Shown: piece after piece, positions 33,301-54,300 of the stretch
Numbering within the stretch: the first letter of the stretch is position 1
Layout of the letters: each line of letters opens with the position of its first letter
From: Candidatus Omnitrophota bacterium
GTDB taxonomy: Bacteria > Omnitrophota > Gorgyraeia > Duberdicusellales > 4484-171
Direction: 5' to 3'
NCBI GenBank assembly: GCA_021735655.1
Contig: JAIPGM010000001.1
Coordinates: 32,001 to 96,000 of the forward strand
Length of the DNA: 64,000 nt
Position numbers and translations under genes: made by a program
The notes under the pieces: generated by a model
Databases searched by the model: none
The model's input: only the letters and a program-made list of their open reading frames with translations
Told to the model about the DNA's origin: nothing

Positions 33301-36300
33301 GAACCTGGATGGATAGTAATGTAGAAGATGCAGCTGAAGATGCTATGCAGCCTACCGGTAACCTTGATTTTATAAATGAGTCTTGGAGTGGTTTAAATGC
33401 AAATAATTTTGCAATTTTAGGAAACAATGAAGCTTTTTATGTTGATGGTAAGTCGCTTGAACCTTATTTTATGGAGTTGTGGCATAATGATCCGGGTAAT
33501 CCTAACGTACTTGATCTTGTTTCAACTACCATGGCTGCCAATGATTATGTTGATGCTGTAACTTGGGGCTCAGCTGAGATAGCTGGCGAGGTTGTTTTAA
33601 CCGCAGTACTTTTCTTTGCTACACCTGGTCTTCCTGATGAGGTAGCTTCAGGTGGTGCCGCATTAAAAGGCGCGTCAACGATTTGGAGTGGTTTCAAGTT
33701 GGGCGCAGATGCTTCTAAGGCAACAATACGCACCGTCAAGGTGATGAGAACAATAAGAAATGGTTTGTATGCCTATAATATCGCCGGAGGAATTATGGCT
33801 GGGTATGCTGAGGCGAAGAACTGGGTGGTCCATGGTGAGTCACTGCTTGGCTCTGGTGAACATAGCAATCCTTTGGCTCTTGTAGATGCTTATAAAGATG
33901 CCGGACGTACGGCTTTTGTTATTACGGTTGCTATGGGTGCCGGAGGTGCTGCGCTATCGAAGGTTGCCAAATCAACTGGCTTATCAAAAGTAGCAGATGT
34001 TTATAAACATCTGCCCAACCTTGCTAAAATTCCGATTGGAATGCTTGGCCGTGCTGTTGGTTATGGATCATTGGGTGCCGGAAGAGCTGTTCTTTATGGT
34101 GATAACCCTGGTAGTGAGGAGTTTTGGACTCAAACTCTTGCAGCTGCTGCTATTGGGCAGGTTTCACCATTAATAAAGTTAGCTGGAAAAGGCATAAGAC
34201 GTGCCGGAGCACCAAAGCTTAATGATGCTGGAAATGCGATTAAGTCAAGCATCCCGGTTCGTTTAGCTCAAGCTACAGCTAGGACAGTTGGTAAAAGTTT
34301 ATATCGCAACAATGTTCCTTTTACTGGTGCCTTGGCTACTGGCGGAGCCGGAGCATTTAATGCTTGGGTCACTAATGAAAGCAATTATTCGGTTTATACC
34401 TTTGTTCAAGATGCCTTCATTGGTAGTTTAGCAGCCGGAGCTGCTAGTAATTTTGGCAAAGCTGTATTCAATTGGAATCAAAAGTTGAGCAAGCTAAATC
34501 CGGCAGAGTATGCTAAGGCTGAGGCAGCAGGTATTAAGAATATGGTTGGCGGCGTCAAACAATGGGCTTATCAAGGTTGGCCAGCGCTTTGGGCGGTTAC
34601 TGATCTCACTACTGAGGTTCTTAATAGAGGTAAGCTGGGCGGCTATGATATTGGCAAAGAATTCATGATCGGTGATTTAACCGCTAATACCGTACGTAAC
34701 ATTAACAATGTCGTTGCCTTATGGACTCTTTCTAGTAGTTTTGCTCAAGCTCGTGGTGCAGGCAAACATTCATGGTCGGAAGGATTTAAGAATCTTAAAG
34801 AAGGTTCTATTAAGCGTTTTACTGCTAGGGGTGATTTCTTGCCGATTAAAGGTCTTAATTCTCTTGAGTGGGGTTTAACCGCTGCCTTTGCTACTGGTTA
34901 TCCTACTTTTTATAAAAATTACCTTGGTTCAGATGCGTCTTGGAATTCTAAAGATTCTTGGTTTGGCCGTGATTTTTATCGCACTTTAAGTATAGTCACA
35001 ATAGGCACAAAACTAATTGTTCCGGGATTACGCGATACGCGCAATCTTTCTAGATCGTGGTTTATGGAAGAGCAGGGTGGAAAGCAAGTATTGCTTACGC
35101 CAATGAATCTTACAGCCAAGATGGTCGCTGAATCAGCTCGTCTAGTTAAAGATCTCTCGATCATGATGCCGCTTTTGCCGCATGTTCAGAATTATCTTTA
35201 TGAAAATAGTAGTGGTTGGAATTTTACTGATACGCTTCTTGGTGAGATGTTTGATATCCAGAAAATGCCGTCTGAAGTTTCCCGAGATGTCGTTGCTGCC
35301 ATTGAGGCCCTAAAAAAAGATCCATCTAAGGTAGATACCTTTATAAAGGAAAACATTAAAGATTCAGCTACCCGTGAAGCCTTAAGAAATAAGATCGATT
35401 TAATTAATAAGTCTTCTTTAGCTAATAAAAATCGCGAGATAAGAGAGTTAGTGATATCTACTTATACTGAAGATATGTTAACTGCTAGAAAAATTTCTAG
35501 TCATGGTATCGCCCGGCAGGCAATGGAATTAGGCCTTGATCCTAATGCTCCAAATACTTCGCTTTGGGATTTGCAAAAAAATATTGGAGTTGAACAGTTA
35601 AGAAATCAGCTTGATATTACAACTGGCCCAGAGCGTGAGCACATCTTGCAACAGATTAAAAACTTTGAACAAGCAACACCGTTTGAGTACAAGCTTAATG
35701 TGATGTCAAATTATTCATGGCAAGGTGCAATAACTGCTATGTACTTTGGTCCGACCATGCATTTTATAAGACCGATTTTAAACCCCGGTCTTAGTAAAAT
35801 GCCAGGCTTAGGTGAGTTTCAGTCGTTAGTTCAAGATTTCTTTGGTGATGGAGCTTTTATTGGCGATACGATGAGGAAAGTTGGTATAGACAGTATACCA
35901 TATATCGGAAAGCCAGTTGTTAACGCTGTTGGTAGGGTTATTGAATTCGGCGTTGAAGAAAATTTACGAGAAGTTGTCACTAATCTAGCATTTAGACAGG
36001 CCTTTGTTCAGATCGGCGGGTTTTTAGCTCCTCCGAGAAGAATGGATTATGCTTCTAATGCTGACTATTTTAGGGCTCAATCAGTTTATCAGCAGGCAAT
36101 GGAATGGATTGAGGAATCATTTGACGGTAAGGGGGTTTCGTTTGCTAGTGTCGCGGCTAATCTTAATTTAAATATTCCCACTCAAGCTCTTCAATCGCCA
36201 GGTAGTCCGACTAGTTCAGCTGTTTACGGTAGTGGAACCAGCCCTTTAAATAACGGCCGTGAATTAGCCACAGAGTTACTTACAGCTGAGGCAGATTATA

Positions 36301-39300
36301 CTGGTTATCATGATCCAAGTACAGTTGATATACAAACTGGTCCGGGAAGTTTTGCAACTTTGGCTGATCTTAGCTTGCCTTCATCAGGAACTCCAGCTGG
36401 CACTTCAGACTCAGCAAAAATAGTTTTAGTTCGTGGATTAACTAGGCAAACTGGTCAAGCTGACTTTGTTAATCCGGTTACCGGCGAAATTGGCATTGAT
36501 GCTTCCTTAGGAAAATATGATGCTTCTACTGGAAGGATAGCTCTTACCGATCAAGGTGGAGTAGCCGCACAACATGCTGCGGCTGAGTTTAGGGCGCACA
36601 GGGAAAACGCATCTAGAAAGGGTGTTTCATTAGAGGATTATAATACTTGGTTAGATAGTAATCCAACTGTGGCAAGAACAATCCATGATGGGGTTGTTTC
36701 TGATGGAGCCGTAGCACCGAGAAGTAATTTTGGTCTTTTTGCAACGCCGGTAGCTGATATTGTTGTTGAGGTTGGCGATAGACCAATAAAGATGAAGGGA
36801 ATAAAAGCTCCAGCTACAGCCGCAATTAATGGGATTTGGTCACTAAGCAGTGACAAGGAAAGAGTCACCACTTTAGATGGTTTAATTGGTTTTGTCAAGA
36901 GAGCGGTTATTCGAGATAAGGCTGCTGAGGTAAAGCTTAACACTGGCAGTGGTCAAATAGTCTTGACTGCTGACAATTTAATGGAATTAGAGATTTTAAG
37001 GGAACGTCTGGTTAATGTTCAAGGCAGTGTTAATACGGATGAGTTAATCAATAGAGCCCGTTATTCACAAGATAACGCGCGCCGTCTGGCTGCTCAACAG
37101 TCTTTAATTGAGACCCTTAACAATGATCAGCTATCAACACTTATTTCTGGAGAAGCAGTCGGTCAGTTAAAAATTGATTTTCTCCAGGAAGGTTTAACTC
37201 GAGCTATGGCTGGAAGGCCGAGTCAGCTAAGAAGAAAGATAGTTGGTGATGCTTTTGATAGATTAGGTAGTCGCTATAGAGATTTACCGCATGGGCTATG
37301 GTCTTTTTATCATTCTTTCCGATCAGCAATGAATCGGACTGAGTTCTATATGCATAAGGCTCAATTTAGATCTGACAGTGCACGTATAGATTTAGTTCAA
37401 AGGATTAGTGATTATCAAGATAGTCAATTCGGCCAAGGCGAGAGCAGCAGCCAAACTACGATTGCTTTGCAAGGTGTCTTACCTTATTATAGCCGTTATT
37501 TAAGGCGCGATGCTAATCGTCGCTTCTGGGCCCAGAAAGCTAACTCTGGTTTAGATTCTTATGGTCGCCTGTCACCATTACGATTGTTGCAATTAGCTGC
37601 CTGGAATCGGGAACTTAAATTAGCTGAATTCTACGTGGATGGATTTAAGACTGAGTTTGATGCTGAAGGTAAAATTGTAGTTAAGCCGCTAGACCCAACC
37701 AAAGATATAGCTTATGCTTTGGTCGGACGTAATGGAAGAGATTTTGATACTCCAATGCGCTGGGTTGAATGGCGGGCTGGTGATAAGTTGCAAGATTTCA
37801 TTTTCAGGTATGACCTTAAGGCTGATAAATTGCTTGAGTGGGCTTTTTATAAGGCAACGGATAATAGTGGATTGAAAACTTTAAGAAAGGCTTTAGGTCA
37901 TAGTGATGACCCTTATCCACCAATAGTTATGGAAATGAGCCAGCATTGGGGTGATCTTGATGATGACCCTGTTATTGCCCGTAAAAATAAACAAATTAAA
38001 GTTGCTAAGGTTTTTGAACCTGATTTTATTAGTGTTCCGGGCGTAGATACTCGTCGTCAATGGCCCATTGGCAAAGGACTAACCTTAACTCAAATCGATG
38101 ATAGCTTATATCAGTTAGAGGGAACATCTGATTCAGGAGAAGCGATTGACGAACCTATTGATTTTTCTGTTATAGGTAGTAGATCTCTAGAAGTGACAGT
38201 GGGCTCTGAAACTATCAAATTTTCTCGAGCTAAAAATAATGCTGCCATTGTAGTTACTAAAGCAGGAAAAGAAAGCAAGCTAACTGAGCACAATGTTCAG
38301 CTGTCTTTAAAGGTTGATGTTGATGGTAAAGAAGAAGAGATCTCAGTGACACTTGCAGAAATAGCTAGAAACGATAGCCTTTACCTTATATATCCTAGTC
38401 AGGCTCGAGGATATGATATTACAATTATTCATCGCAAGATGGGCGGACATCAGCTAACCATAAGGCCTTATGCCATTGATGTTTCTGGTAGTGATGATTT
38501 ATCGGATGTTGGTCCTCGTAGTTTGGTTGAAGATTGGAAAGATGTTTTACCTGAAGCAGAAGAGGCAACTGATAAACCTGGATTTAAGAAAGAAGCTGAT
38601 AAAGATGGTATTTTAGCTAGCTTAGAGGCCATCAGAGATGATGCAATGGCTGGCGATCCCGACGCTAGAGAAGCTTGGGGTCAATTAATTGATGATGGTG
38701 TGGCGGCTGGTCTTTGGGAATCTGCTAAAAAAGGTCCTAAATGGGATGGTTCTGGTCCGGCGATTAGTAGTATTGGAGAAGGTGACAATGGATCTGAAAA
38801 CCTAAGTATAGCTGGCAAATGGTCAAAACATCAAAAGATTAAGCAGATCGAAATGATAGTTCGTCTTAGTGATGGCCAGGAAGTTTCAGTTCCAGTAACA
38901 GTGTTTTATATTGAAGGTTTAAGAGCAAGCCATGTTGGTTTTTATGACGGAAGACCTTCTATATACTTAACTTACTATTCTGACTATTCACATGAGCTCG
39001 GTGAAATGCAGCGGCATTTACAGGCAATGGCTGACCTTGATTTATCAGCTACTAGCCGGACGGATATTGAGGAATATTATAGTAAGCTCACTCCTGAAGC
39101 CGCACGAGCTATCCATGATCAGGTTATTGGCGAGGCTATTGATGGTCTTATTAGTCAAGGTATTTTGCCGGGGAAGGATCCTTTGGCTGAATATGAGAAG
39201 TTTGTAGAGTTAAGGCATGCTCGTGAAGACCTTGAAAGAGCAACAACCAGTGAAGGTTTAGCTAAAGCTCACAAGAGGTTAAATGATTTATCTTTTGAGG

Positions 39301-42300
39301 CTAGTGATATGGGCATGAAGCCTAGCCGTGTTTTAGCAGTTGAAGCTGGAGTTGATCAAGAGCCGTCAGATAGCCAGACTAATGATAGCCCGTTTGTTCC
39401 TTCTAATCGCATACCTATGATACCGGGCTCTTCTTCACCAGTTGGCTTACCTAATCCTGTTCAGACTCCGCTTGGCCCAAAAGGACTTTCGCCTTTATCT
39501 ATTATTAGAAGGACATCAACTTTTATTACAAATTTAAGGGGTTATCTGGGTTTATCACCGGCTATAGCTGCTGAAGTAGGCGCTGTGCCGAGTGACAGTA
39601 GAAGACAAATAGATGCTTTAACAGCTAAGATTGACGATGAGAGTGATATAAGCTTTGGAAGATCAGCGAATTCGCCCGGCAAGACGGTGGTCCATGCCGT
39701 AATTGCCTTTGTACGGCGATGGATCAATTTTACAGAGGGCAAAATAGCAGTTGGATTTACAAATTTTGGTCATAAATTTGACCAATTTGAAAAAAGAATC
39801 AGCTCTTTATTAGGAAAAATAGGCAGAAATGCCACTTCTGAAAGCGAAAGAGGTGTATCTGGAAGCGCTAGGAGTGTATCTAGAAACGGAAGCCAGGCCG
39901 GAGTAGCTTTAGACAACGGAAAGGATTTAGAAGTCAAAGCTAACCCTGAAGATGGCCGCAGACCGTTAAGAAGAGCTGAGAGTAAGCTTATAGCAGGAGT
40001 AGATAGCATACCTAATAGTAGGGATGCTGAAGAAACTCAAGCTGAAGAGATTGGCTTGGGTGGTAATGGCAGTGGTTCACAAAATGGTGGTCAAGGAACT
40101 TTAGGCGGTTCGTCTATAGAGATCGAACTACCTGTAATTTTAGATTTACGACGTCTTCATGAATCCTTCAGACCAGTAGTAGTTGGCCATAATGCCTCAA
40201 AGGCTCAGGCTCCGCCTGCAAATTCAAGAAAACAAGCAAGTTTAATTTTCTATACCCACCCAATAACTGTACTTGCTTTAGGTTTTATCTTTTTAGGCTT
40301 AAAAATTCCTCAACTTTTACCAATATCCATATTAATAGCTTTAGGTTTATTAGCAATATTGCCGCTTTCTCGGATTCTACCAAACGTGGCCGGTGGGTCC
40401 TTGAGAGCGGCTTTTGATTTAAATCAATGGACCCATCCTACTGTCGAAGTTGCCTCTCCATCAACCTTCCTGGCAAGTGGGTCCCGTAATAATAGTTCCA
40501 GTAGCTCAATCCACACCGATAAGGTTGCCTCTCCAACTTCTAAATTGGTTGTTGGGCTTTCTGGAACTAGTCTTAATAGAGGGGTAAGTAGTAATAGTAG
40601 CAGTAAAACAGAACAAGGGGGTGCAAGATGGTCAGTAACATCAGATCGCTCAGGTTTCAACACTTGGTTGTGGCAACCGATGGAACGATTTTTGCATCAG
40701 CTAGAGACAGCTTTGACCGCATTGAGAACTACATCGTCAGCCGTTTTGGAGATGTTAAGCGCCAGGTTAACACGCGTTTTGAACCGGTTAGATCGGATGA
40801 GGCAGGATGGATTAAGAACCTTATCGGAGTTCCTCAGACGATTCCGATCTATCGGGCAAAGAACATTAGCGTTAGCTAGCGCTGAGAGAGGGTCCGTGGC
40901 AGGACAATTTTCTAAGGGGGTCCGTGGTAGACCACTCGATAATGGCCGAGCTAAAAGATTAGCATCTCGAGCTTTGTCAATAATTACTGCTTTAGCTGTT
41001 TTAGGTTCAGCTAATGTTGTTCAGGCAGCTGAAGCAGGTCAGGCAAGTGATAGCGAAGTAAATGTGGGGTTAGTTTTAGCAGTTGTTTTTGCGGTAGCAG
41101 CAGTTTTAGCAGGAATCAGTTTTAGAATTTATGCCGGACAGAGGATCAAAGATATTGAATCTAAAACTGGAATCCAAGATAGCGCAAGAATTACTAGAAT
41201 CAGAGCAATAATTGAAGAGTTAAAACAAGAAGCTCTCAGGTTAGCTCAAGTCGCTCGAGAAAATGCGATGATAAAGGTTCTAATAGCACCTCAGGGTGAC
41301 CCATATAGAAGACTTAGTGCTTCTGAAATAGAAAAATTAAGAGCTAACCAGAAACCAGATGTAGAGTTGAGATTGTGGGATGTAACTGTGAGCGGAACCG
41401 GAACCGTAAGAATAATTTATGGTTTTAGCGAGGATAGAGTTGATTTCATAGTCATTGCTACCGATGGCGTTGTTCGAAGACAAAGTTTACCACGCGATTA
41501 TGTAGTTGATTCTATTGTAAGCGATAATGTAATTGTCGATTTATATCGTGGGAACCTCAATACTCAGCGAATCATAGAACATAGCATATATCAACGCTTA
41601 ACATCAATTATTGGTAGCTACAACGCAGAATTAGAAGCTGCCCTTGAAGAGGCTGAAGCTAATTCAAAGCAAGCTAAAGAACTATTAGACAGTAACCAAA
41701 GACTATCAGCTCGTGCCATTCGTGCTAGAGCTCGTCAAGCTGCTAGCTTAGCCGGAGCAGCCATTGATAATGCTACAACCTTAATTGAAATCGCCATCTC
41801 ATTGAATGTAGCTAGATTAAGAGCTCGAGCTAAAGTCTTAGAGAGAGAAGCTCAGGCTACTTTAAGACAAGCTGAAAATAAAATACAGAGACCACTTGAT
41901 AATGGTCGAGTGAAAAATGAACCATTAATAGGTTTTAGTCCTAATGGTTTTCATGAAAGTAAACTATTTACAATAATAACGCTAGGTTTGCTTTTATTAG
42001 CCGTAGCAGCAACAGTGACCTATCCGATTTACGCGTTAATGTATTTATCAATACCGCTCGGTGGAACTATCATTCTTTATGCATTGCTCGCTTCTGCGGC
42101 AGTTTTCTTTTCTATTAATTTTATTAACCTTCTTAATAGGATTGAATATTATCTTTTAATCAGTCGAGCACCACAAGCTGAACAAAGTCTAATTAAGGCA
42201 AGGAACTATGTAGAATTTCAGGATGCAGTCTATGCAATAGCTAGAGAGGCTGGAATTAGCATTCCTCATATAGATAGTATAGGCCAAGCTGAGGTTATTA

Positions 42301-45300
42301 TTGATAAAGTTACTGCGTCGCTTGAAGCTAGGGATTTAGATAAAGAAAGAGTTCAGGGAATAAGAACAGCTTTAGAGATGTTATTTTTAGGCGATGGTTT
42401 TGCTTTCGATCTTTTCGCTGCAGCCGTCTATATGATATCTTATCGAGACGAAAATAGTAGGTATCCAGCTTGGGTAAGCGGGTATCAAGAGAATGTTGGA
42501 AGAGTATACTATTCCAATCATCGTAAAACTCGTTCTCATTTGGGAAGTTTCTATCCTTGGTTGAGCATTCTACCTCATGAAGCCATGCATGCATTTTTAG
42601 CTAGAGCTAATTTAATTGATGGCGGAGCGATCGGTGAGGAGATCGCTACCAAAGCTGCTCGTATGAGCGAAAACGTAATAATTAGAGAGGTAGTTTCACC
42701 GTCAACCGCTTGGGAATCTTACCTGAGAAATCATTGGGGAGAAGTTCAAGATGGCTATTCTCATGATGGACAAGAGGTAGAGGTATTAAATATCAGTTCA
42801 ATGGCCCTACGAGGAATTGCTTTAATTCGTTTTATTAGAAATTTACTTAGCTTGAGGCTATTTCAATTGAGAGAGCTAGCATCTTTAGCAAGAGTTATAT
42901 TATTAGGTACACCGAATACAACTCTTGGTTTAGCATTTGCGCTTGATAATGGAAAGAAACCTACTCGAGTATGGAAAAGAATGCCTAGTTTGCAGACGGT
43001 TTATGAAACAAGAGGCAACAGAATTGACCGTTTTTTCCGAGCCATAATGTTAGCTGAGACTTTTGAACAAGAGGAAAAGGCTGTTAGACTAGCTAAGAAA
43101 ACCCTTAACTCAGATGATTATCTCAAATTAATGAAAAGAATTATGGCTTCAGTTGAGGTTGTCGCTGATGATGATCAGACTGATAGTAGAGCAACTCCGC
43201 TCGACAATGGCCGTTCAAGAAGGGTAATACCTAGAACCTTATCAGTAATTGTTACCTTAGTTGTTTTAGGTTCAACTAAAACAGCCTTTGCTTCAGGAGC
43301 AGTCGCTGCCGGCTCAGCAACAGTGCCTTTTTGGGGTGTAGTTGCTATGATTGTTATGGGGCTAGCTTTTGCATATATGTTTGGTTTTGTAGTTTATAGT
43401 ATGATTCGTAGTGCCAATATTGGCGGCCGAGATGAAATTAATGAGTTAAGGGATCGGGTTAGAGAGTTAGGTGGAAGCAAAGCTTTAAGAGAAGCCGGAA
43501 CCCCTGAAGAACTTATTGGAAATCTAAACAGTAAAGGCCAGGTTAGTGAAAACGAAATAGAAGGAGAGCTTGATGTAGTAGAAGCTCAAATTAGGAACAT
43601 TGAAGAAAGTAATAGTTCAAGTTGGTCCCAAGATCAGTTAGTTAGCTTAGAGGGCTATAGAGATGAATTAAGAAGAGAACTACTTGAAGCACAAGAACGA
43701 TTAAGAGTTTTAGAAGAAGAAATTGCTGGAGATATTCGTGCTTTTGAAAGAGCTCATGAATTAAATGTACCTTATGCAGCAGATGGTGATTTAGAAGAAG
43801 CTCCTCAGCCAAAAACTGTAGTTGGTAGAACACTCAGATTAGCTGGTCAAATTGCTAAGGTAGCCGTGGTAGCTACATTTGGCATAATGGTTATTGCATC
43901 TCCGGCTACCAGTTTTGCAGGATCTACCTTTGGTCAGTCGGCAGATGGTTTGGCTATGGACCATAATTCAGATATGGATGATCAGGATATAGACATGGAT
44001 CATTCAATGGGAGCTGTTTTACCGAACACAGAAACATTAACAACTGATGAAGTAGTTTTTGATCCTTCTTCAGTTATTGATTCTTTGTCAGATCAAGCTG
44101 GGGTTGATATAGCCGACACAGCACATTTTAATAGAGAGCTTAGTGGAGCTAAAGATAAGGTTGTTGTGTTAGATTTTTGGGCTACTTGGTGTGGACCTTG
44201 TAGAGACGTGGCTCCACTTTTAGAAGAAATTGCTGAGTCTGATGATAATATTAGGTTATTGAAAATTGACATTGATGACAACCCTGAAATTTTTAATAAA
44301 TTTAAGGTAGTGGATAAGGTAACTGGCAAAGAATTAGTTCCTCAGATACACGTTTTGGTCCATAATCCTAAAAATGGAAATTGGGAACGAAGAGAAGCTT
44401 TGGTAGGTAAAAAGAGTAAAAATCAGATAGAGGCTAGCCTCAGGCCATACTTAGCTGGTTTGGCTAAAGCTGAAACAGAAAGCGATAAGCCGGCCAAGGA
44501 AGCTTCTGAGGGCGAAGCAAGTAGTGGTCATTTTTCAGTTCCTTCAGGGGAAGCGGATTCTAAAGATTTGGCCGAAAGAAGGATTGATGAGATAGAGAAA
44601 AAACTTGTAGCTGAAAAAGAATTAACTGAAAAGAAAAATAAGGCTGATCAAGCTTTTAGCAGCGGTGATTACAGAGAGGCTGCTGAGCTTTATGAGGAAG
44701 TTTTAAATTCGGATTTAGCTAAGGGAGCTTTAGAAGCAATCGCAAAAACAAAGTTGGCTGTTGCTAAGCAGAAAATTGAAGTAGGCGATTCCGATCAGAA
44801 TATTAAAACCACTGCTGTTGGAGATGATAAGGTAGCTCCTGAAAATGAGAGCTTACAGCAAGTTATAGACCAAGGTTTAAAACAAACATCCTCAGCGACT
44901 ATTAACGAAGCGTTAGTTAAGTTAAGAACATATAAGATTGAAGAAGGTAGCTTGTCTGATGAATCTTATAGAGCACTTAAGGCTGAACAAGAAAAAGCTA
45001 TAAGTTTGTTAGTTCAGAGAGTAAAAGCTGTTACTTTTGCTGAGCTCAAAATGCAAAGAGCAATTGAAGCTTCAAATTACAATAAAGCCATGAATGAAAT
45101 CGGTAATGTTTATGTAGAAACATCTACTGATGGTTTAACTAGAGCAATTACCGATGCTATTAATATTCAAGCTCAACACTTAGAGAGTGTATTGACGGCT
45201 ATCCACGTTGCAGACAGGACAGACAAGATTGATTTTGCCTTGAAAGTACTTAAAGAAAGTAAAGGTAAGAATTTACTCCCAGAGGAATTAGAAACAAAAC

Positions 45301-48300
45301 TTCAACAAAAAGTAGATAGAGCTATTGGCGAGCTCACAGCAAGAAAAGCCACAGTTGGTCAAGAGACTGATTCAATAAGAGCGCCACCAACTGATAAACC
45401 AGCTACTGAAGAAGCAGAAGCGTCCACAGATTATTCAAAGGTCGGTATTGAGCAATTGACAGAATTGGTAGATGCTAAGATTAAATCTCAACTTTCTCCG
45501 GAAGAGAAAAAAGTTTATGAGGCAAACAAAAACAAGTTAGATTATTTAAAGAAAAATCATCCGGATCTTTTTAAGAAACTTGTTGTTATTGCCGAAGACG
45601 ATATAAAGGCTTGGTTCGAAGCTAACCAAAAACCAATTGTTCAAGCTCAACAAACAGAAATACATAGAGCCGAAAATGTTCTTAAGCAATTCTTAACAAG
45701 ATTTGGCATAGAGTTTAATCAGCCGCGCTATGTAATGGTTTCGGAAAAATTACTTGATGGTCGCTTGGGCGCAGTTTATATTTTATCTCCGGATACAGTT
45801 ATTCTATCTGATAAATTTGAAGTTAAGCAGAAGGTTAGACCGCAAGGAAGGTCTCAGGGACGAAGCCTAGTCGCCCTTGAACCAGCTGGTTCAAATATCG
45901 AAGCTGCTAATCCTAATGAAAATTCTTTAGCTATCGTAGTTATTCATGAGAATCTTCATTTAGTTAAAAATTCTGGTTTAGGCAGCGATCAGATTAACGA
46001 AGGATTTATCCAACATACAACTGATATATTAGCAAAGCAAAATAATTTTAAAGTATCTCACGATCTATATGAACCGCAAAAGGCAGTTATTTATGCCTTA
46101 GAGGCAGAAATAAGTAAAGTTGCCGGAGTAAGCTTAGCTCAAGCTTACGATATGGTAGCCAAAGGATACTTATTAGGAGATACCAGTTTTATTTCAGCAA
46201 ATATTGGAGAAGGCTCCTGGGAAGAAATTGTTAGTATTTCTAATGAATATAGAGATAAAATGGCTTTTGATAATAATCCGTTGCTTTGGGATAAATATGT
46301 ACCTAGAGTAGCTAAAAAATTAGGGGTTAATGACGAAAGCTTAAAAGATCAGCCTAGAGGTTTGAGAGAGAGAGCTAAGCAGTCAGTGGTTGAGTTAGCC
46401 GTTGTTGTTGGAAAAGTTCAAGAGTCTGACAGCGTAGAGCCCGAAGTATCAGACCAAGAGTTACCTAAAGAAGAGGTCAAGAAGGCTGATGGTGATCAAT
46501 CTGTAGATGCTCAGGTTTATTCTTCAGCTCGAGGATTGAATTTAAAGGATAAACAAGAGGGCGAGCAGTTGCAGCAAGCATTCGCAAAAGCAGTTGTTGG
46601 CAATAATGTACCTGAAGAAGCGTTTGTTGTTACTGGCGATACAGATAAGAATTTTTCTGTTAAAGGCAAATTAAGTAATGAAGATGTTGTTAGTTATAGC
46701 ACTAAGAAGATATCTGAGCGCCAAGAGCAGGGATCTCTTACTGCTGGCAGTTTAATAAAGGTAAGAGAGGTTGGTGGAGATAAGAGTTTTCTCTGGCAGA
46801 CACATTTGGGTGATGTTTATGAATTTAAGGCTGACGGGACAGTAAGTAAACTTATTGATGCACGTGATCAAACGGCCTCTAAAATTAAGGTAAATCCAGC
46901 TGAAGAAGGATTGCTCGATACAATAGGCAGGCATGCTTATGAACAGATGCAGAGAGGAATTACGAAGGGATCTATTTTTAACTCTCAAGAGGAACAAATA
47001 GGTTTTTGGCAGAGAAAGGATAATAAAACTATAGCGGTTATTTATGCAGCTGCTGGCGAAAGAAAAGGTTTCGATGTAAGTTTTACTGAAGAAGTTCGTT
47101 CGGTTGAAGAGCAAAAAGCCAAGAAACTTGCTGATGACCAAGCTGCTGAAAAAGCTGCTGAAGTTAAGAAAGCCGCTGACGCTGAAAAACTTGCTGCTGA
47201 AAAAGCTGCTGAAGCCAAGAAAGTAGCTGATGCTGAAAAACTTGCTGCTGAAAAAGCTGCTGAAGCCAAGAAAGTAGCTGATGCTGAAAAAGCTGCTGAA
47301 GCCAAGAAAGTAGCTGATGCTGAAAAAGCTGCTGAAGCCAAGAAAGTAGCTGATGCTGAAAAACTTGCTGCTGAAAAAGCTGCTGAAGCCAAGAAAGTAG
47401 CTGATGCTGAAAAAGCTGCTGAAGCCAAGAAAGTCGCTGATGCTGAAAAAGCTGCCGAAGCCAAGAAAGTAGCTGATGCTGAAAAACTTGCTGCTGAAAA
47501 AGCTGCTGAAGCCAAGAAAGTAGCTGATGCTGAGAAAGCTGCTGAAGCTAAGAAAGTAGCTGATGCTGAAAAACTTGCTGCTGAAAAAGCTGCTGAAGCC
47601 AAGAAAGTAGCTGATGCTGAAAAAGCTGCTGCTGACAAAAAGATTGCTGATGAAGCTGCTGCTAAGAAATTAGCTGATGAGGCTGCCGCTAAACCAAAAA
47701 CCCAAAATGATGGAGCTAGGGGTATTCGCGCTCCGCCAGCTGCGGAACCAAAGGTTGAAGATCAGCCACTAGCTAAAGCAGAAGAAGCAGTTAGCCAAGC
47801 AATGGAGAAATTGGTTGATGCTGCTAATGCTTCAAATGATGCTGCTAATGCTTATTCCGAAGCTACCAGCAAAGAAGCTGAAGATAAACTTAATAAACTA
47901 GCTGGAGAGTTTGCTCAGTTAGTTTTAGCTAGGGATAATCAAGATGATCAGGTTGTTGACAACGATGGTCAGGTAAAGGCTAAGGAAGCCGAAGTAAGCC
48001 AGAAACAGAAATCAATAGCCGAGCAAGAGGAAAGATTAGAAAAAGCTCTTACTCCTCCAGAAATAAGTGAAGATTGGGAACAGGCTGCCAAGGAGAGGTT
48101 TGGTAAATATAGCCATAATTCTAGGGGTAAATATAATAAAAATAGATTTCATAGCCAGACTCGCACAGTTCCATCAGTAGCTTATGATCAACCAGAAGAA
48201 GATTTTCGTAAAGGAATTCATGAGGTTGTCGGTGAAGGCAAAGAAGCCGCTGCTTATGTTGATACTTCAGTAGTTCATCGTGGTAGTGAAGCGCGTGGTG

Positions 48301-51300
48301 CTGGTACAGTAGTTTTGATCTTTGCTGTAGATAAAAATGATTTTAATAAAAGAGTTTTAATATATGTTGATGCCAGCCGTAGACGCGGTATCGATTATAA
48401 TGATCAATATTTTGACTTAGAGGGTAATCAAGTTGAGCCTTTTGGAACAAGTGATAGCTTAATCATTAGGGTTGGCCAAGTTAGTTCCGACAAAGATGGA
48501 GAAATAAGCTTAGATTGGGGTGAACCTTACACTAGTTCTCGTGGCGAAATTAATGATATTTTTGGAAAATATAAACCTGAAGGTGAATTCGTGGCTGGAT
48601 CAGAAGCTCAAGCTAGCGAGCGATCAGCCAAAGATTTACAGGAAGAGTTAGAAAAAGCCGAAGGCGAATTAGAAGCCCTCAAGAAAGCTAAGGAGGAGTT
48701 AACTGGAAAGACAGCTGAAACTGATGAAGAATTAAAAACTAAACAAGCTGAGATTGAAAGATTAAAAGAAAACTTAAAACAAAGACAAGCCAAAGCTGCT
48801 GAACTAAAAAGCGAAACCGCTAAAGCAGTAGATTTGTCTATAGAGGCGCAAGATATAGTTAAAAAAGTTATAGAGGCCAAAGATGCTCCGTTAGAGGATA
48901 GGATTAAAGATCTTGATCAAGCTATTGACTTGGTTGATCAGGTAGCTGAAGTTGCTAGAAGTCTTTCAACCGAAGCGGATAATGAAGTAAAAATAGCCGA
49001 AGGCTTGGTTGATTCAGCTAAGAAAATTGAAGCCTATGCTATTAGTTTAAGAGAAGATGCTGAGAGGAAACTGGCTGAGGTAAAAGCCGCTGAAGAGGAA
49101 GCCCAAAGACAAGCCGAAGAAGCTAAAAAGGCTCAAGAAAAAGCTGAAGCAGAATTAAAGGTCAAAGAAGCTAAAGCCAAACAAGCTTTAGCTGAAGAAG
49201 ATAAGGCTAAGGAAGAATTAACCGAAGCTCAAGGTAAAACTGAGAAAGTTACCACTACCCAGACCGTAAGGGTAAATATTAATAAGCCGCGTTGTTGTTT
49301 AGTAAGATTTTTTATTGATCGTCCAAGATTTGTTCGTGGTTGGGTGCAAGATGGACATTCACGTCGTTGCGGCAGACAAACTTACCGTCAAGGTTTCTAC
49401 CCTGCAGAAATTTACGTAGAAACACTAGTAGCCGTAGATACAACTGATTTAGAGAAAGCCGCAGCTGATAAAGCTGAAGCAAGAAAGACAAGTGATGTGG
49501 AAGTTGAGACTGCTAAAGGAGAGGTTGAAGTTGCTTCAACGGCTACCCAAGAAGCTGAAGCTAATTATAATCAAGCAAAAGCGCAAAGGGAACAAGCTGA
49601 AAAATATTTAGAAAGAGCTAAAGAACTTGAACAGGCAGCTACCCAATGGCGCAAACAAGTAGAAAAAATAGCTCAAAGAGCTCAAGAGTTAGTTGACCGG
49701 GCTCAAGAATTGGAACAAAGAGCAAAAGAAGCAAAAGAGGCCATTGAGGCGTACAAAAAGGCTCTTTCTGAAGAAGAAGGGAGCGGTCAGCCTAAAGGGC
49801 CTGAAGTAGGATCCTTTTATGAGAATCATCCATTTTGGTTTTTCTTCTTACTTTTAACCCCCGGATATCTTTTCGGAATATGGGCTGCTATACGTCGTCG
49901 AAAGGGACTTTCAATCATTCCTGGACGAGGAAAAAAAGTTGTTATAGCTCTTATTGCTGTTGGATTAAGCTTAGCTTTGGCTGATAAGGCTTCTGCTGCA
50001 GACGTCAGCTTAGCAACTATGGCTGTAGAGAGCTACATGACTTTACAGAATACTACTGGTGGAGTTACTGGTTTTGGAACTGGTTATGCATTAGGAGAAG
50101 CTACAGTAGCTTTATTCTATTGGTTGTTTGGTAATAAAGATAAGACTGAACAATCCCAACCAATCCAACCTCAAGCAGATCAAGCCCCTTCTAGTCGCAA
50201 GAAAGGAAAGAAAAAAGTTGGGCCAGAAGTAACTGAAGAGTCTGATTCTGTTGTACATGAAGATGGTGATAGTGAGGACGGTGAAATGGGTTCTGGAATT
50301 GCCACTTCAAAAGGCCGGAAAGATAGTTCGCAGTCAGCACTTTCAGATATAAAAGTAAAAGCTGAATTAAGTCCTTTAGGCAGACAGGTACGTATTATTA
50401 TTGCTAGTAAGCAGGGTACCAAGAAAGCTCTATTGGATGAGATTTTTGATTTAGCAAATCTTCCGATATTTATTGCTACTGAGGAAGGAAGTTTCTATAT
50501 TTACTATAACCCACGAACCAATCAGTTGATTATTACCGCTGAACGAAGCATTAGTAATAATCCGGCTAGTGTCGGTATGGTACCGGTGAGTTCATACGGC
50601 CAAGCAGCGGAATTAGAGACTCTTTGGGAAAGTGAAGATGGGACTGAAATGGCAGCCCTTGAGGGCGAAGTTGATGACTTCGATGATGTTACTATAAACA
50701 ATATTCGTGGCATAAACAGTTATCTTACTCATCGTAACAGTATTGTTATTATTACCAGTGCTTCTGATCCAGAAGCTTACGTGCAGGATGGCGAGGATAC
50801 AGTCAATGCTGTTATAATCCAGTCAAGTAGGCGAATTGTTCATAACTCAGTTTCCTTGATGAATGCTCTTGGTCAGATAGAAGAGGTTAATGCGTTCTTA
50901 ATTTTAGGGACATCTTCTGATTGGATTACTACAGATGAAGATGGTAGAACTTTTATCCATCGCGCAGTGAAGTTAGTAGGTCGCGATGGTAATCGTATTC
51001 GTATGGTCGTTTTGGATTTTGATCAACCACTTGAAGTTCATTATGGAGTAATTCGTTTGGGACGACCGACTAACACTAAAAATATTCAGCATACCATAAT
51101 ACCTTTATCGCGTAAGCTTGGTTATGAATGGATTGCAAAACATAAAATTGCCGCCAATTTAGTTTTAGTTGATGCACACGTCGCTGTTCCGGATAGCTTT
51201 TCGTTTGTCCAAGATGGTCATGAAGATACGCCATGGATTAAGAGCGCACGTAAGCCTTGGACTATTCGAGGTCCACCCGGTTCGGGTATCCAATGGTATG

Positions 51301-54300
51301 AAGTAGCTCCGGGGACCTATGTTATGTTTGTTCAGGGCGCAGGTCGACAAGCCCGTATCAGAGCTGCGGTTGAGAATTTCGTTGCTACTCATCGGGCCGA
51401 AGACGGAACAGCTAAACCAGTTGTTGTCAAAATCGCCGATGGCTCACAGGGTGTAGGTATAGCAATGTTCGGTGTCGAAGAATACGATAACGAGTTAGAT
51501 TTTATCGATGATGCCGTTCAAACTATCCAGGGTTTTCTTAGTGAAGGTCACAGTGTTATGCTTCAAGAACGTGAAATACCGGTTAATGTTGCGGTTAGTG
51601 GCCAGGATTCAAATTATCGTGTCTTTATATCTCGCAAAAACGGAAAGCCAGTTGTAACCAAAATTGTGGTCCGTACTGGTCCTTTTTCGAATGATCCAGT
51701 TAACATTAGTCAGGGTGCCGAAACTATAAGTTTTGAAACAGAAAGCTACGCGATGCTTGGTTTGACTAGCGATGAGCATGCTCGTAAGCGTGAAGCTATT
51801 GAGTCAGCAGCTTTAGCAATGTTTAAGGCTTTAGATGCACAGGCTGATAATGATGCTCTTTATGAAGAAACAGAACGTAGCCAACAAGATTTTGCAAGTG
51901 CCGATATAATTGTTGTTGAAATTGAAGATGCTAACGGCGTTAAGCAGTTCCATCCTAAGATTATTGAAGGCAATGGTACCAATTCAGGTGGTTTTTGGCA
52001 TCTTGATGAATACTATAACAGTAGTTATAGCAGTAAGGGTCGTCAAACAACCGAAAGGGGTTTAGCTATCAAAGAATATGCTGAAACCATAGCCGCTCGT
52101 GCCCGCGCCTATCGTCAACGCCTTGAAGGGAAAGAAGGGGCAGCATACCTTGAACATCTTATGACTACCGCTGTGCAAGATGGCAATGGTTTGGCTGTTT
52201 CTGAAGATATTGCAGTTGATGAAGCCGAATATGATGCAGCGGTTGTTCTTATCGGAGGCTATGTTGATTCTCAGGCCTTGGCTATTTTACAAGCAGCGAC
52301 TGAGAGTGATCCTGCAGTTGCTTTTGTTTGGGTTCGTTGGTCTGGTGAGCTTCGTCGTCGGAAAGGTGTATTATATGTTCAGGATGGCGTTCGCTATCGC
52401 GAGGGCAAATTAGAAGCAGTACACTATGCAGCACCTATTGCTGTAGGTATGGTGCATGCTGCTGGCACTGTCAGCAATAAACAATTACGTAGATTAGGCA
52501 TAACACCACGTACTTGGAATACACGTGTTGAATTTTATATGCATCATAAGGCAGCTACTGCTTATATTTTACGTCAAGCTGGCGTATCAATGCCGAAAAC
52601 ACTTGCTTTCTTGCCGGGTAGTAACAGAGGGCCAGCTCTATTACGCGACGACCCCGATACAGTTATTGTATCTAAGAATGATTTACGTAGAAGAAAAGCT
52701 GCTGTTCGAGTAAGGATACGTCAACGCGTAAGTGAACTTTCAGAATTCACCACTGGCGCTATTGTTAAGCCGGCTAACCGTTCACGTAGTGAAGGCGTTG
52801 AAGCAATCCCTTATACTGGAACCGAAGCAACCATCGATGCTATTACTGATATGATTATGGCTCGTTTGCTTAAAGGCGAAAGTCTTATTCTCCAGGAAAC
52901 ACAATTAGCAAGATCAATCGATGGTTTATATGGTATCGGAAAAACTAGACACTTGGTACGAGCCTTCGGTATGATTGATCCGGTAACTGGGAAACCAGTT
53001 GTTTTTGCCATCAGATTTGATCCAGGACATATGCCGATCGGCGGAGCCGATAGTATTGTAGTTAACGCTACCCGTCATACCTTGACTGCTGATAAGTACC
53101 ACGGTTATACACTTGAAGAAGTTGCTGCTATGTGGGGTATGGATCCGGAAAGCTTACGCAGCAGCATTGAGCAGTTATTCATTGATGCAGTTACTGCAGT
53201 TGCCTCAACGGTTAATCCACGTGGTGTCAGTCAGGCTTGGATTACGACCGATATGATTATCGATGAAACAACCGGAAAGCCGGTTCTCGTCGAGATGAAT
53301 GGTCGTCGTTCAGCTCAAATCTTTGGTACTGAGAAGCACAGATCAGAACTTGCTCGTTCAGGAAAGGCTCCGGCACGTAGTTATACTGCTACTTTTACTG
53401 ATGCTTTAGCTGCGAAGGCCAAGAAACACCTTAAGGTAAGTATAGAAGAGACTTCGACAGCAGCAGTTCCTTTAGACAACGGAAGTAGTCATAGAGGATT
53501 GTCTATACCGGTATTTTTAGCTGGAATTTTAACTTTGGGTTTAACAAATATTGCTTCGGCTGCCGAAAAAGGGCAAGCAACTAATTCAGATAATCCGCTA
53601 TTTGCTTTATTTTTAATAGTTGCTATACCTTTAGCTGTAGCAGCTGTTGTATTCTTATTTGCTATAGATTGGGATTATTATTTTGGTAAATTAACCAGGC
53701 AATCGCCTCCCAGCGAGAGTGAAACCTCCCCGATAGGGGATGATAGATTAGAAGTTGATGGGGCTAGTTCATCCGTGGCTGCTAGCCCTACTTCTTCTAG
53801 CCATAGGGATGAGCCTCATCGACCTCTTGACAACAACTCTGGAGAAAAACGAAGCAGATTTTCTTTAAGATCTCTTTTCGGTGGAACAGCAGATAGCTCT
53901 TCAGCTTCTAGCTCTGCTAGTAGAACATCTCGAGAAACTCGTGCACCACCAGTTTTAAGAATTGTAATAGCTTGGGCTAGCGCAGGTAACATAGCCGCAT
54001 TAAAGGCTTTAGTCGAGCGTATTAGGCAGGATTTAATTGATGGATTACCTTTTGATGTTGTAATTGAAGAAACAGTAGTCTTAACTAAATTAGATAAATA
54101 TAACCAAAGTCATTTAGGCGCAACCAGAGATTCTAGCGTTGGTCAGTATATCCTTCCTTGGCCAAATTTAAAAACTAAAGCTAACGTACCTACCTTAGTT
54201 ATTACTGATGCTGATTTGGGCGGAACATCTGAAGATGATTCTGGAAAACGATCAACAAATAATAGCCTTATGGGCAGGACCTATGCTTGGCAGAATATAG

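Follow-up and report, generated by a model that had tools for sequence, protein, structure and literature searches.

A tandem repeat that encodes a long charged helix is present in a 64,000-nucleotide (nt) stretch of DNA from an uncultivated Candidatus Omnitrophota bacterium (GCA_021735655.1, contig JAIPGM010000001.1, forward strand, positions 32,001-96,000), which is called the window here and in which all positions are numbered. The repeat is located at 47136-47705 (+) and lies in frame inside a giant gene whose open reading frame (ORF) continues beyond the end of the window. The best explanation, to which a probability of about 0.62 is given, is that this intragenic repeat encodes an Ala/Lys/Glu/Asp helix of ~198 amino acids (aa), which would form a semi-rigid spacer, resembling domain II of Escherichia coli TolA, in a giant Omnitrophota membrane protein. 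The main evidence comes from the organization and youth of the array, from the composition and charge pattern of the encoded peptide together with the absence of a heptad pattern, and from the close likeness in properties between the tract and TolA domain II.

Organization and age of the repeat array

The core of the array consists of ten units of two kinds (Table 1). The L unit (51 nt) encodes AEKLAAEKAAEAKKVAD, and its five copies are all 100% identical; the S unit (36 nt) encodes AEKAAEAKKVAD and is present in five copies with 0, 0, 1, 1, and 2 differences, all of which are synonymous. The core as a whole carries 4 differences in 435 nt (0.9%), and the peptides are identical within each unit type. 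A single reading frame is open across the array and encodes AEK(LA)AEKAAEAKKVAD. Tandem Repeats Finder detected a period of 36 (~13 copies) and a period of 51 at 47142-47652, as well as a higher-order period of 123 nt (3.1 copies, 96% match, score 730), which corresponds to the block L+S+S. The array is far beyond chance: it contains 323 non-unique 31-mer positions, compared with one other duplicated 31-mer pair in the rest of the 64 kb, and exact repeats within it reach 117 nt. An antisense ORF of 198 aa at 47042-47638 (-) was rejected as a gene, its Ser/Ala/Phe product being a mirror image of the GCT-rich coding strand.

The units themselves have an internal structure. The S unit is composed of two 18-nt halves (AEKAAE and AKKVAD) that are identical at 12 of 18 positions, and the 15 nt by which the L unit exceeds S (AEKLA) match the first S half, without its last codon, at 13 of 15. 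These matches between the halves and the insert point to a hierarchy from 18 nt to 36 nt, then to 36+15 = 51 nt, and then to the 123-nt L+S+S block. It may be proposed that an 18-nt (6-aa) primitive was doubled to give the S unit, that a 15-nt partial copy (AEKLA) was joined to S to give the L unit, and that blocks of 36, 51, and 123 nt were recently duplicated, or are being homogenized, through replication slippage or unequal recombination.

The age of the array is indicated by the contrast between its core and its edges. The edge units differ from the S consensus at 5-7 of 36 nt (14-19%), against 0.9% in the core, although they retain the A/E/K/D character. Together with the 123-nt higher-order repeat, this gradient indicates that the interior of the array was recently duplicated or homogenized and that its ends are decaying, which is the usual picture for such arrays. 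The four substitutions in the core (GTA>GTC, GCT>GCC, GAA>GAG, and GCC>GCT) are without exception synonymous, an outcome with P = 0.003 when every substitution is given the same likelihood and P = 0.006 when transitions are split from transversions. This provides weak but real evidence that the encoded peptide itself is under constraint.

The original prediction for this locus had described a perfect tandem repeat of 36- and 51-nt units at 47140-47700, with more than a dozen near-identical copies, and had read it as a product of very recent expansion or ongoing homogenization. The coordinates match, the unit sizes hold, and recent expansion or homogenization is borne out by the 4 differences per 435 nt in the core against 5-7 per 36 nt at the edges and by the 123-nt repeat. 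The array is near-perfect rather than perfect because of the four synonymous differences, and the copy count was slightly generous, since ten units are near-identical and the remaining four are diverged or partial.

Properties of the predicted helix

The encoded tract (aa 8582-8779, ~198 aa) contains 41% Ala, 24% Lys, 15% Glu, and 8% Asp. Charged residues account for 47% of it, and with 47 Lys against 46 Glu+Asp (23%) it is net neutral; a DNA-binding role of the H1 or AlgP type was therefore rejected. The residues Val, Leu, and Ile make up 9.7% of the tract and are scattered over every heptad position and every helical angle. The charges, on the other hand, are regularly spaced: there are 47 opposite-charge pairs at i/i+3 and 25 at i/i+4 (72 in total), compared with 0 and 12 same-charge pairs, respectively, and the net salt-bridge score is 30.6 per 100 aa versus 0.2 +/- 4.8 in shuffled sequences.

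No hydrophobic periodicity of 3.5, 3.6, or 3.67 residues was found in the array, and the z value for the heptad (3.5-residue) pattern is -0.8. Two segments further downstream gave z values of 9.3 and 5.9 in the same test, and these values rise to 12-14 when Ala is counted. From this difference it follows that the downstream coiled coil, which the original prediction had placed at 48.6-49.7 kb, is genuine, and that the array is a helix of another type. The proposal of a non-coiled-coil Ala/Lys/Glu helix is thus supported by the heptad test, by the 72 opposite-charge pairs, and by helix prediction.

Structure prediction was performed with AlphaFold2 (AF2) in single-sequence mode. In model 1, helix was predicted across residues 98-296 of the model at a predicted local distance difference test (pLDDT) score of 55-74, with two breaks that divide the tract into helices of 62, 76, and 53 residues. 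In model 2, which covers the array through the downstream anchor, the pLDDT is 33-62 over the array and 70-87 over the coiled coil. The predicted template-modeling (pTM) scores of the models are 0.23-0.35, and the tertiary arrangement of the array and the coiled coil in them was set aside as being of too low confidence to use. Searches of Pfam and NCBIfam with the array returned nothing but far-sub-threshold compositional matches (Plasmodium HRP, the IgA-binding protein of group B Streptococcus, and histone H1-like proteins), and a sequence search of the PDB returned no matches.

Judged from its sequence, the tract is most likely a single α-helix that is stabilized by salt bridges and has no hydrophobic seam, and it may be extended and monomeric. 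An α-helix rises by 0.15 nm per residue. Fully extended, the tract would span roughly 30 nm, and at this rise an S unit corresponds to 1.8 nm, an L unit to 2.55 nm, and an L+S+S block to 6.15 nm. Gain or loss of such blocks would change the length of the spacer by these amounts with the frame intact, since every unit length is a multiple of three.

Comparison with TolA domain II and other repeat systems

TolA is the force transducer of the Tol-Pal system, and its central domain II spans the periplasm and is, in gamma-proteobacteria, α-helical and rich in Ala, Lys, and Glu. The closest known counterpart of the tract is domain II of E. coli TolA, which has nearly the same composition (Ala 40%, Lys 19%, Glu 15%, and Asp 5%). 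Its salt-bridge score is 24.0 per 100 aa, compared with 30.6 for the array and ~0 for shuffled sequences, and its heptad z of 0.36 is, like the -0.8 of the array, that of a helix without heptad periodicity. Both tracts are built of 5- and 6-residue sub-units from mixed 15- and 18-nt DNA units, and the peptide AEKAAADKK, of which TolA has four copies, recurs a single time in the array, in the trailing unit. Lengths of 110-335 aa, with 192 aa as the median, are on record for TolA domain II (PMC12204202), and the ~198 aa of the array tract lie close to that median. Both are placed in the periplasm of diderm cells, although for the array this placement is predicted. It may be concluded by analogy that the array works like TolA domain II on every property measured, and that it would act, as that domain does, as a semi-rigid spacer.

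The analogy is one of properties and not of homology. BLASTP against E. coli TolA gave no alignment at E <= 100, no Pfam or NCBIfam match to domain III (TolA_C/TonB_C) was found anywhere in the giant ORF, and no TolA model in NCBIfam gave a match. The N-terminal anchor helix of TolA bears His in an SHLS-type motif that binds TolQR; this motif is lacking here, as IAKVAVVATFGIMVIASPA has no His, and the neighbors are Tad-pilus genes in place of tolQRB-pal. The host proteins also differ greatly in size (>14,000 aa versus 421 aa for TolA). Furthermore, the longest exact DNA repeat is 117 nt in the array and 20 nt in tolA, so the array is much younger.

The repeat tract of tolA is reported to consist of 13 imperfect 15- or 18-bp units that encode a Lys/Ala-rich helix; copy numbers of 8-16 were recorded among 234 E. 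coli isolates, alleles with 2-39 copies remain partly functional with an optimum that depends on the stress applied, and contractions are RecA-dependent (6.9e-5) (PMC3477136). Because of this precedent, and because slippage and recombination depend on the length and identity of repeats, the array is likewise expected to be a hotspot for length variation.

Single-alpha-helix (SAH, or ER/K) domains and the engineered A(EAAAK)n rigid linkers share with the array a long charged helix, a regular spacing of opposite charges, and the absence of a hydrophobic seam, and the terminal remnants of the array literally read EAAAK. In SAH domains, Glu, Lys, and Arg typically make up well over half of the residues. 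The array shows the regular opposite-charge pattern at i/i+3 and i/i+4 without a seam, but its charge content does not reach that of SAH domains: in comparison with natural ER/K helices, Ala is much more frequent (41%) and charged residues are fewer (47%), and its monomeric state is a prediction.

Another group of relevant systems is the Periscope Proteins, bacterial surface proteins of variable length whose stalks are tandem arrays of folded domains that closely resemble one another (Whelan et al., 2021, PMC8201768). The array resembles them in its tandem in-frame repeats of high DNA identity, in the elongated stalk that is predicted, and in a copy number that can change. It differs from them in that its units are helical segments of 12 or 17 aa, far below domain size, and in that neither a ligand-binding head nor a cell-wall or surface anchor was identified, the anchor predicted downstream being a membrane anchor.

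Predicted topology and neighboring domains

The array-bearing stretch comprises ~1,974 aa between two hydrophobic segments (Table 1). The first of these (aa 7497-7515) has three basic residues on its N-flank and none on its C-flank and is predicted to run from inside to outside. By the positive-inside rule applied to both bounding segments, the stretch between them is predicted to be extracytoplasmic. This placement fits the position of the thioredoxin domain and the presence of an ATP-grasp region where a cytoplasmic location is predicted. From the first segment to the array, the order of elements is thioredoxin, a helical region, a RAPP motif (aa 8006), an orphan HExxH domain, and a beta-rich domain; behind the array follow a second RAPP motif (aa 8789), a helical segment, a beta-rich domain (~aa 8900-9080), the coiled coils, and the anchor.

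Table 1. Features of the repeat array, of the surrounding protein stretch, and of the host gene (window positions).
Feature	Position	Strand	Basis
Cyclic di-GMP (c-di-GMP)-I riboswitch aptamer, leader of the giant gene	21060-21253	+	50.5 bits vs gathering score 35
Giant ORF holding the array, from ATG 21375; runs off the window end	21375-64000	+	at least 14,212 codons; at least 14,208 when counted from the first ATG
Hydrophobic segment IAKVAVVATFGIMVIASPA, aa 7497-7515, followed by SFA/GS; opens the array-bearing stretch	43851-43907	+	hydropathy, charge flanks
Thioredoxin domain (WCGPC), ~90 aa past the first hydrophobic segment	44115-44435	+	Pfam/NCBIfam
HENLH motif of the orphan HExxH domain upstream of the array	45945-45959	+	motif; remote relative P0001
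Start of the A/E/K helix tract, EEQKAKKLADDQA, with a diverged AKKLAD half-unit	47106-47144	+	translation; AF2 helix starts here
Diverged 36-nt lead unit AEKAAEVKKAAD, 5 nt differences vs S consensus	47145-47180	+	unit-by-unit parsing
Core array, ten units, order L L S S L S S L S L	47181-47615	+	unit-by-unit parsing
Diverged 36-nt trailing unit AEKAAADKKIAD, 7 nt differences vs S consensus; resembles TolA AEKAAADKKAAA	47616-47651	+	
Two 27-nt remnants, EAAAKKLAD and EAAAKPKTQ; Pro terminates the helix	47652-47705	+	
RAPP motif (aa 8789-8792), after the remnants end at aa 8781	47727-47738	+	motif count
Coiled-coil segment 1, aa 9085-9300 (216 aa), heptad z = 9.3	48615-49262	+	AF2 pLDDT 70-87
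Coiled-coil segment 2, aa 9365-9475, heptad z = 5.9	49455-49787	+	heptad test
Hydrophobic segment aa 9490-9510, followed by RRRKGLSIIPGRGKK (RRRKG); predicted out-to-in anchor	49830-49907	+	mean Kyte-Doolittle 1.62

This arrangement bears on the idea, put forward originally, that the helix is a rigid spacer leading to the coiled coil and that its copy number may tune the reach of a distal adhesin region. Pfam and NCBIfam revealed no adhesin or ligand-binding domain on the upstream or the downstream side of the array, and ~300 aa (a helical segment and a beta-rich domain) intervene between the array and the coiled coil, so that the helix is not directly linked to it. The direction of projection would also be reversed. 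Since the charge flanks put the closer membrane anchor on the downstream side, past the coiled coil, any domains projected by the helix would be the upstream ones, i.e., thioredoxin, HExxH, and beta-rich.

The HExxH domain covers ~45660-46400 (aa 8090-8340). Its sole detectable relative among 1.84 billion representatives is P0001, a secreted protein of 332 aa (E = 5.6e-9, 28% identity), which shares the pattern I-x-x-I-H-E-x-L-H with it; neither protein has a Pfam family. This relative was the one weak match, limited to the HExxH part, that an exhaustive HMMER scan of these representatives returned for a flank query from which the repeat had been omitted (aa 8010-8585 plus aa 8791-9095). The same query found no relatives in a word-indexed search of 5.8 billion proteins and none in the GTDB genomes and JGI metagenomes. 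A codon-degenerate pattern for AEKAAEAKKVAD matched once each in the genome and metagenome collections, in both cases as a single, non-tandem copy in the same Gemella-type surface-protein helix, which was dismissed as unrelated to this locus.

Two further observations concern the downstream end of the stretch. At 49830-49985, the sequence GPEVGSFYENH-PFWFFFLLLTPGYLFGIWAAI-RRRKG resembles a C-terminal sorting or anchor signal, with a hydrophobic helix followed by a basic cluster. A signal-peptide-like segment (KKVVIALIAVGLSLALADKASA/AD) comes 15 aa further on, which gives the region the appearance of two secreted-protein genes fused in frame.

Assembly, copy number, and alternative explanations

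The original prediction also warned that such an array may collapse in assembly, and the risk proved to be real. The Logan contig SRR12088349_1123 (79,101 bp), in whose record position 31891 is window position 1, was assembled independently at k=31 from the same sample and agrees with the window with 0 mismatches over 21.8 kb; a search of the literature on the run SRR12088349 turned up nothing of relevance. It terminates at window 47210, exactly where the 31-mers of the array cease to be unique: uniqueness ends with the 31-mer 47180-47210, and its successor is present five times. This break directly confirms the assembly risk; collapse of the array in the window itself is not supported. Because the unit order is irregular, four unit-specific single-nucleotide differences are present, and every k-mer is unique at k >= 118, which 150-nt reads can resolve, the window version of the array is plausibly resolved. 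A real array with a wrong number or order of units (collapsed, expanded, or mis-ordered) is an unlikely alternative. The halt of the k=31 assembly of the same run at 47210, the 117-nt exact repeats near short-read length, and the fact that the open frame does not validate the count, because any multiple of three preserves it, speak for such an error; the irregular order and the unit-specific differences are unlike a cyclic assembler artefact, the uniqueness at k >= 118 allows resolution by 150-nt reads, and the motifs PLDNG and RAPP, which recur in the giant ORF and occur on both sides of the array, argue against a chimeric join.

Several points weigh against the semi-rigid, TolA-like spacer. 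The copy number rests on one assembly. The topology is a reading of hydropathy and the positive-inside rule only, with a borderline closing segment (Kyte-Doolittle 1.62). The salt-bridge statistics derive from one unit of 12-17 aa repeated ten times and not from ten independent observations, and the charge content of 47% lies below that of classical ER/K single helices. AF2 gives the array low confidence (pLDDT 33-74) and breaks or partly unfolds the helix in both models. Finally, no homolog conserves the tract in the collections searched, so evolutionary evidence for the importance of its length or presence is missing.

The last two of these points would also be expected if the tract were neutral filler, that is, a tolerated runaway expansion of a low-complexity linker that has no function tied to length or rigidity and that may be largely disordered or only transiently helical. 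This explanation has a minor but appreciable share of the probability, as the whole module is an orphan and giant Omnitrophota proteins consist mostly of unannotated sequence (bioRxiv 10.1101/2023.11.21.568195). The synonymous nature of all four core substitutions (P ~0.003-0.006), the strongly non-random salt-bridge spacing with no same-charge i/i+3 pair, and the retention of the same composition in the diverged edge units all count against it. The array is, moreover, close in sequence to textbook helix-forming Ala/Glu/Lys peptides. A tract that is helical but packed, whether as an antiparallel Ala-rich bundle, as an oligomer, or by pairing with the downstream coiled coil, would be much shorter than 30 nm. 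Alanine-rich helices can pack, and such an arrangement would suit the three helices of AF2 model 1 (62, 76, and 53 residues), the similar lengths of the tract (~198 aa) and coiled-coil segment 1 (216 aa), and the predicted membrane anchoring of both ends of the stretch. It is nevertheless doubtful, given that no hydrophobic periodicity of 3.5, 3.6, or 3.67 residues exists, that irregularly placed AEKLA insertions of 5 residues displace the helical phase in an unpredictable manner, and that the models are of low confidence (pTM 0.23-0.35).

The original prediction amounts to a Periscope-like adaptive stalk, with a copy number that differs among cells or strains and adjusts the reach of a binding or adhesin domain. 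The identity of the units, with exact repeats of up to 117 nt, gives slippage and RecA recombination a substrate, every unit size keeps the frame, and the concept has precedents in the helical repeat tract of tolA (PMC3477136) and in the Periscope surface proteins (PMC8201768); the position of the gene downstream of a Tad-pilus cluster and a c-di-GMP riboswitch would also suit attachment. This explanation is improbable all the same, because an adhesin or ligand-binding domain was detected on neither side, variation was not observed (one assembly, with no second copy of the locus in the collections searched), Periscope stalks are arrays of folded domains instead of 12-17-aa helical units (PMC8201768), and the stretch, if uncleaved, is predicted to be anchored in the inner membrane at both ends. 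A more elaborate proposal, which we regard as very unlikely, is that the array is a copy-number-tunable TolA-like "ruler" helix in a c-di-GMP-regulated giant polyprotein and forms the C-terminal tail of a released HExxH protein of ~780 aa. The recurrent motifs PLDNG and RAPP, along with internal hairpins resembling signal peptides, would mark the borders of the modules in such a polyprotein, the RAPP motifs at aa 8006 and 8789 would bracket the array-bearing module, and the helix would set the working distance of the HExxH protein in the envelope of a predatory ultra-small bacterium.

In itself, the array is an ordinary kind of feature that adds one case to the known intragenic repeats and helical spacers, and it alone leaves the knowledge of either unchanged. 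Its value is more practical: within a giant gene that is otherwise intractable, it is a convenient marker, of high probability, for length polymorphism at the strain level, and a concrete example of a breakpoint that fragments short-k assemblies of giant genes. If the TolA-like spacer explanation is true, Ala/Lys/Glu repeat helices would have been recruited independently as envelope spacers outside Proteobacteria, and the array would represent a defined, expressible piece of an Omnitrophota giant protein for biophysical study.

The giant host gene and its genomic context

The frame of the giant ORF contains no TAA, TAG, or TGA, and as all three are missing, an alternative genetic code was rejected as its cause. 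Pfam and NCBIfam recognize in it the thioredoxin domain, a weak ATP-grasp match (~51.4-51.8 kb), and an M54 archaemetzincin-like HExxHxxGxxH motif (~54.4 kb), and nothing else; more than 20 hydrophobic segments are distributed over it. Upstream, in the window and the source contig, lies a complete Tad-type pilus cluster with RcpC, secretin, TadZ and CpaF ATPases, TadB/C, and a TadE/G-like protein. The secretin indicates a diderm cell, and every homolog of the CpaF ATPase, from 94% down to 60% identity, carries the name Candidatus Omnitrophota or Omnitrophica; P0003 and P0004 are CpaF proteins at 93-94% identity. In the precomputed Pfam matches, the secretin (L004, 3751-5391, on the source contig upstream of the window) carries TonB_C, which is an unusual fusion.

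With its adjoining Tad cluster and its Omnitrophota/Omnitrophica CpaF homologs, the locus falls within the established class of giant membrane-associated genes of Omnitrophota. Such genes are often flanked by cassettes for pili or type II secretion systems (T2SS) (bioRxiv 10.1101/2023.11.21.568195; 10.64898/2026.06.07.730766), and their products are mostly unannotated sequence (West-Roberts et al., 2023, bioRxiv 10.1101/2023.11.21.568195). The gene described here conforms to this class in its more than 14,000 codons, many transmembrane (TM) segments, few recognizable domains, and Tad/T2SS-type pilus cassette alongside. A divergent SecA_DEAD domain and a characteristic TPR or glycosyltransferase content mark the "Archaeovorin" type of Omnitrophota giant protein; no SecA_DEAD, TPR, glycosyltransferase, or dockerin domain was found in the 14,212 aa within the window, beyond which the gene continues. 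The protein differs in having no detectable relatives in the segments searched; residues 201-1400 (1,200 aa) also found none among 5.8 billion proteins.

The aptamer in the leader of the giant gene is located between a promoter-like site (20990-21019) and the start codon, and one of its hairpins holds an insertion of 110 nt. In all, four c-di-GMP-I (RF01051) aptamers exceed the gathering threshold (4517-4628, 13196-13283, 14782-14870, and 21060-21253, +), each of which lies upstream of an ORF. On this basis, regulation by c-di-GMP is predicted for the giant gene and for several genes associated with Tad.

The riboswitch leader, together with two over-represented motifs that are tied to hairpins, is more unusual than the array. 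The motif PLDNG, usually in the form (R/K/T)PLDNG(K/R), occurs nine times in the giant ORF, compared with 0.011 expected, and the broader LDN[GN] 12 times, at 39909, 40935, 41895, 42942, 43200, 53472, 53826, 54540, 54642, 55464, 55500, and 57987 (+). The codons of PLDNG differ among copies, which means that conservation is at the protein level; a search of the literature on this motif found nothing relevant. Three of the PLDNG motifs lead membrane hairpins at aa 6525-6589, 7280-7348, and 10704-10771 (~40935-41129, 43200-43406, and 53472-53675 in the window). The layout of these hairpins is basic residues, a signal-peptide-like segment ending in AxA (VQA/AE, AFA/SG, and ASA/AE), a loop of ~12-18 aa, a second TM segment, and again basic residues. 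Since the hairpins resemble internal signal sequences, processing of the giant protein by signal peptidase is a possibility.

The motif RAPP is present four times (45378, 47727, 53940, and 58128, +), against 0.1 expected, and always in linker-like sequence. The copies at 45378 and 47727 bracket the ~780-aa module whose end is the array, and the other two follow a PLDN[GN] motif at 38 and 47 aa. The sole other duplicated 31-mer pair of the window, at 53769 and 54606 (+), belongs to a dispersed repeat that encodes RLEVDGASSSVAASPTSS, each copy adjoining PLDN[GN].

The first part of the giant protein (aa 1 to ~6290, 21375-40250) has an N-terminal signal-like segment, with no further TM segments and no recognizable domain. 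Near the end of the window (~62280-64000, aa ~13640-14212), divergent tandem repeats of domains are recognizable at the protein level, e.g., QEVTRSLFLRFDLE versus VTHTLLFRFELD and KKPFTQTVTVVAANSQAVVIIFGDNELNVLARKNGERIGYG versus KTPYTQIAPIIAANDDWVVILVKDNKLNVLNRDDGKTIGYG, and these repeats, unlike the array, are old at the DNA level.

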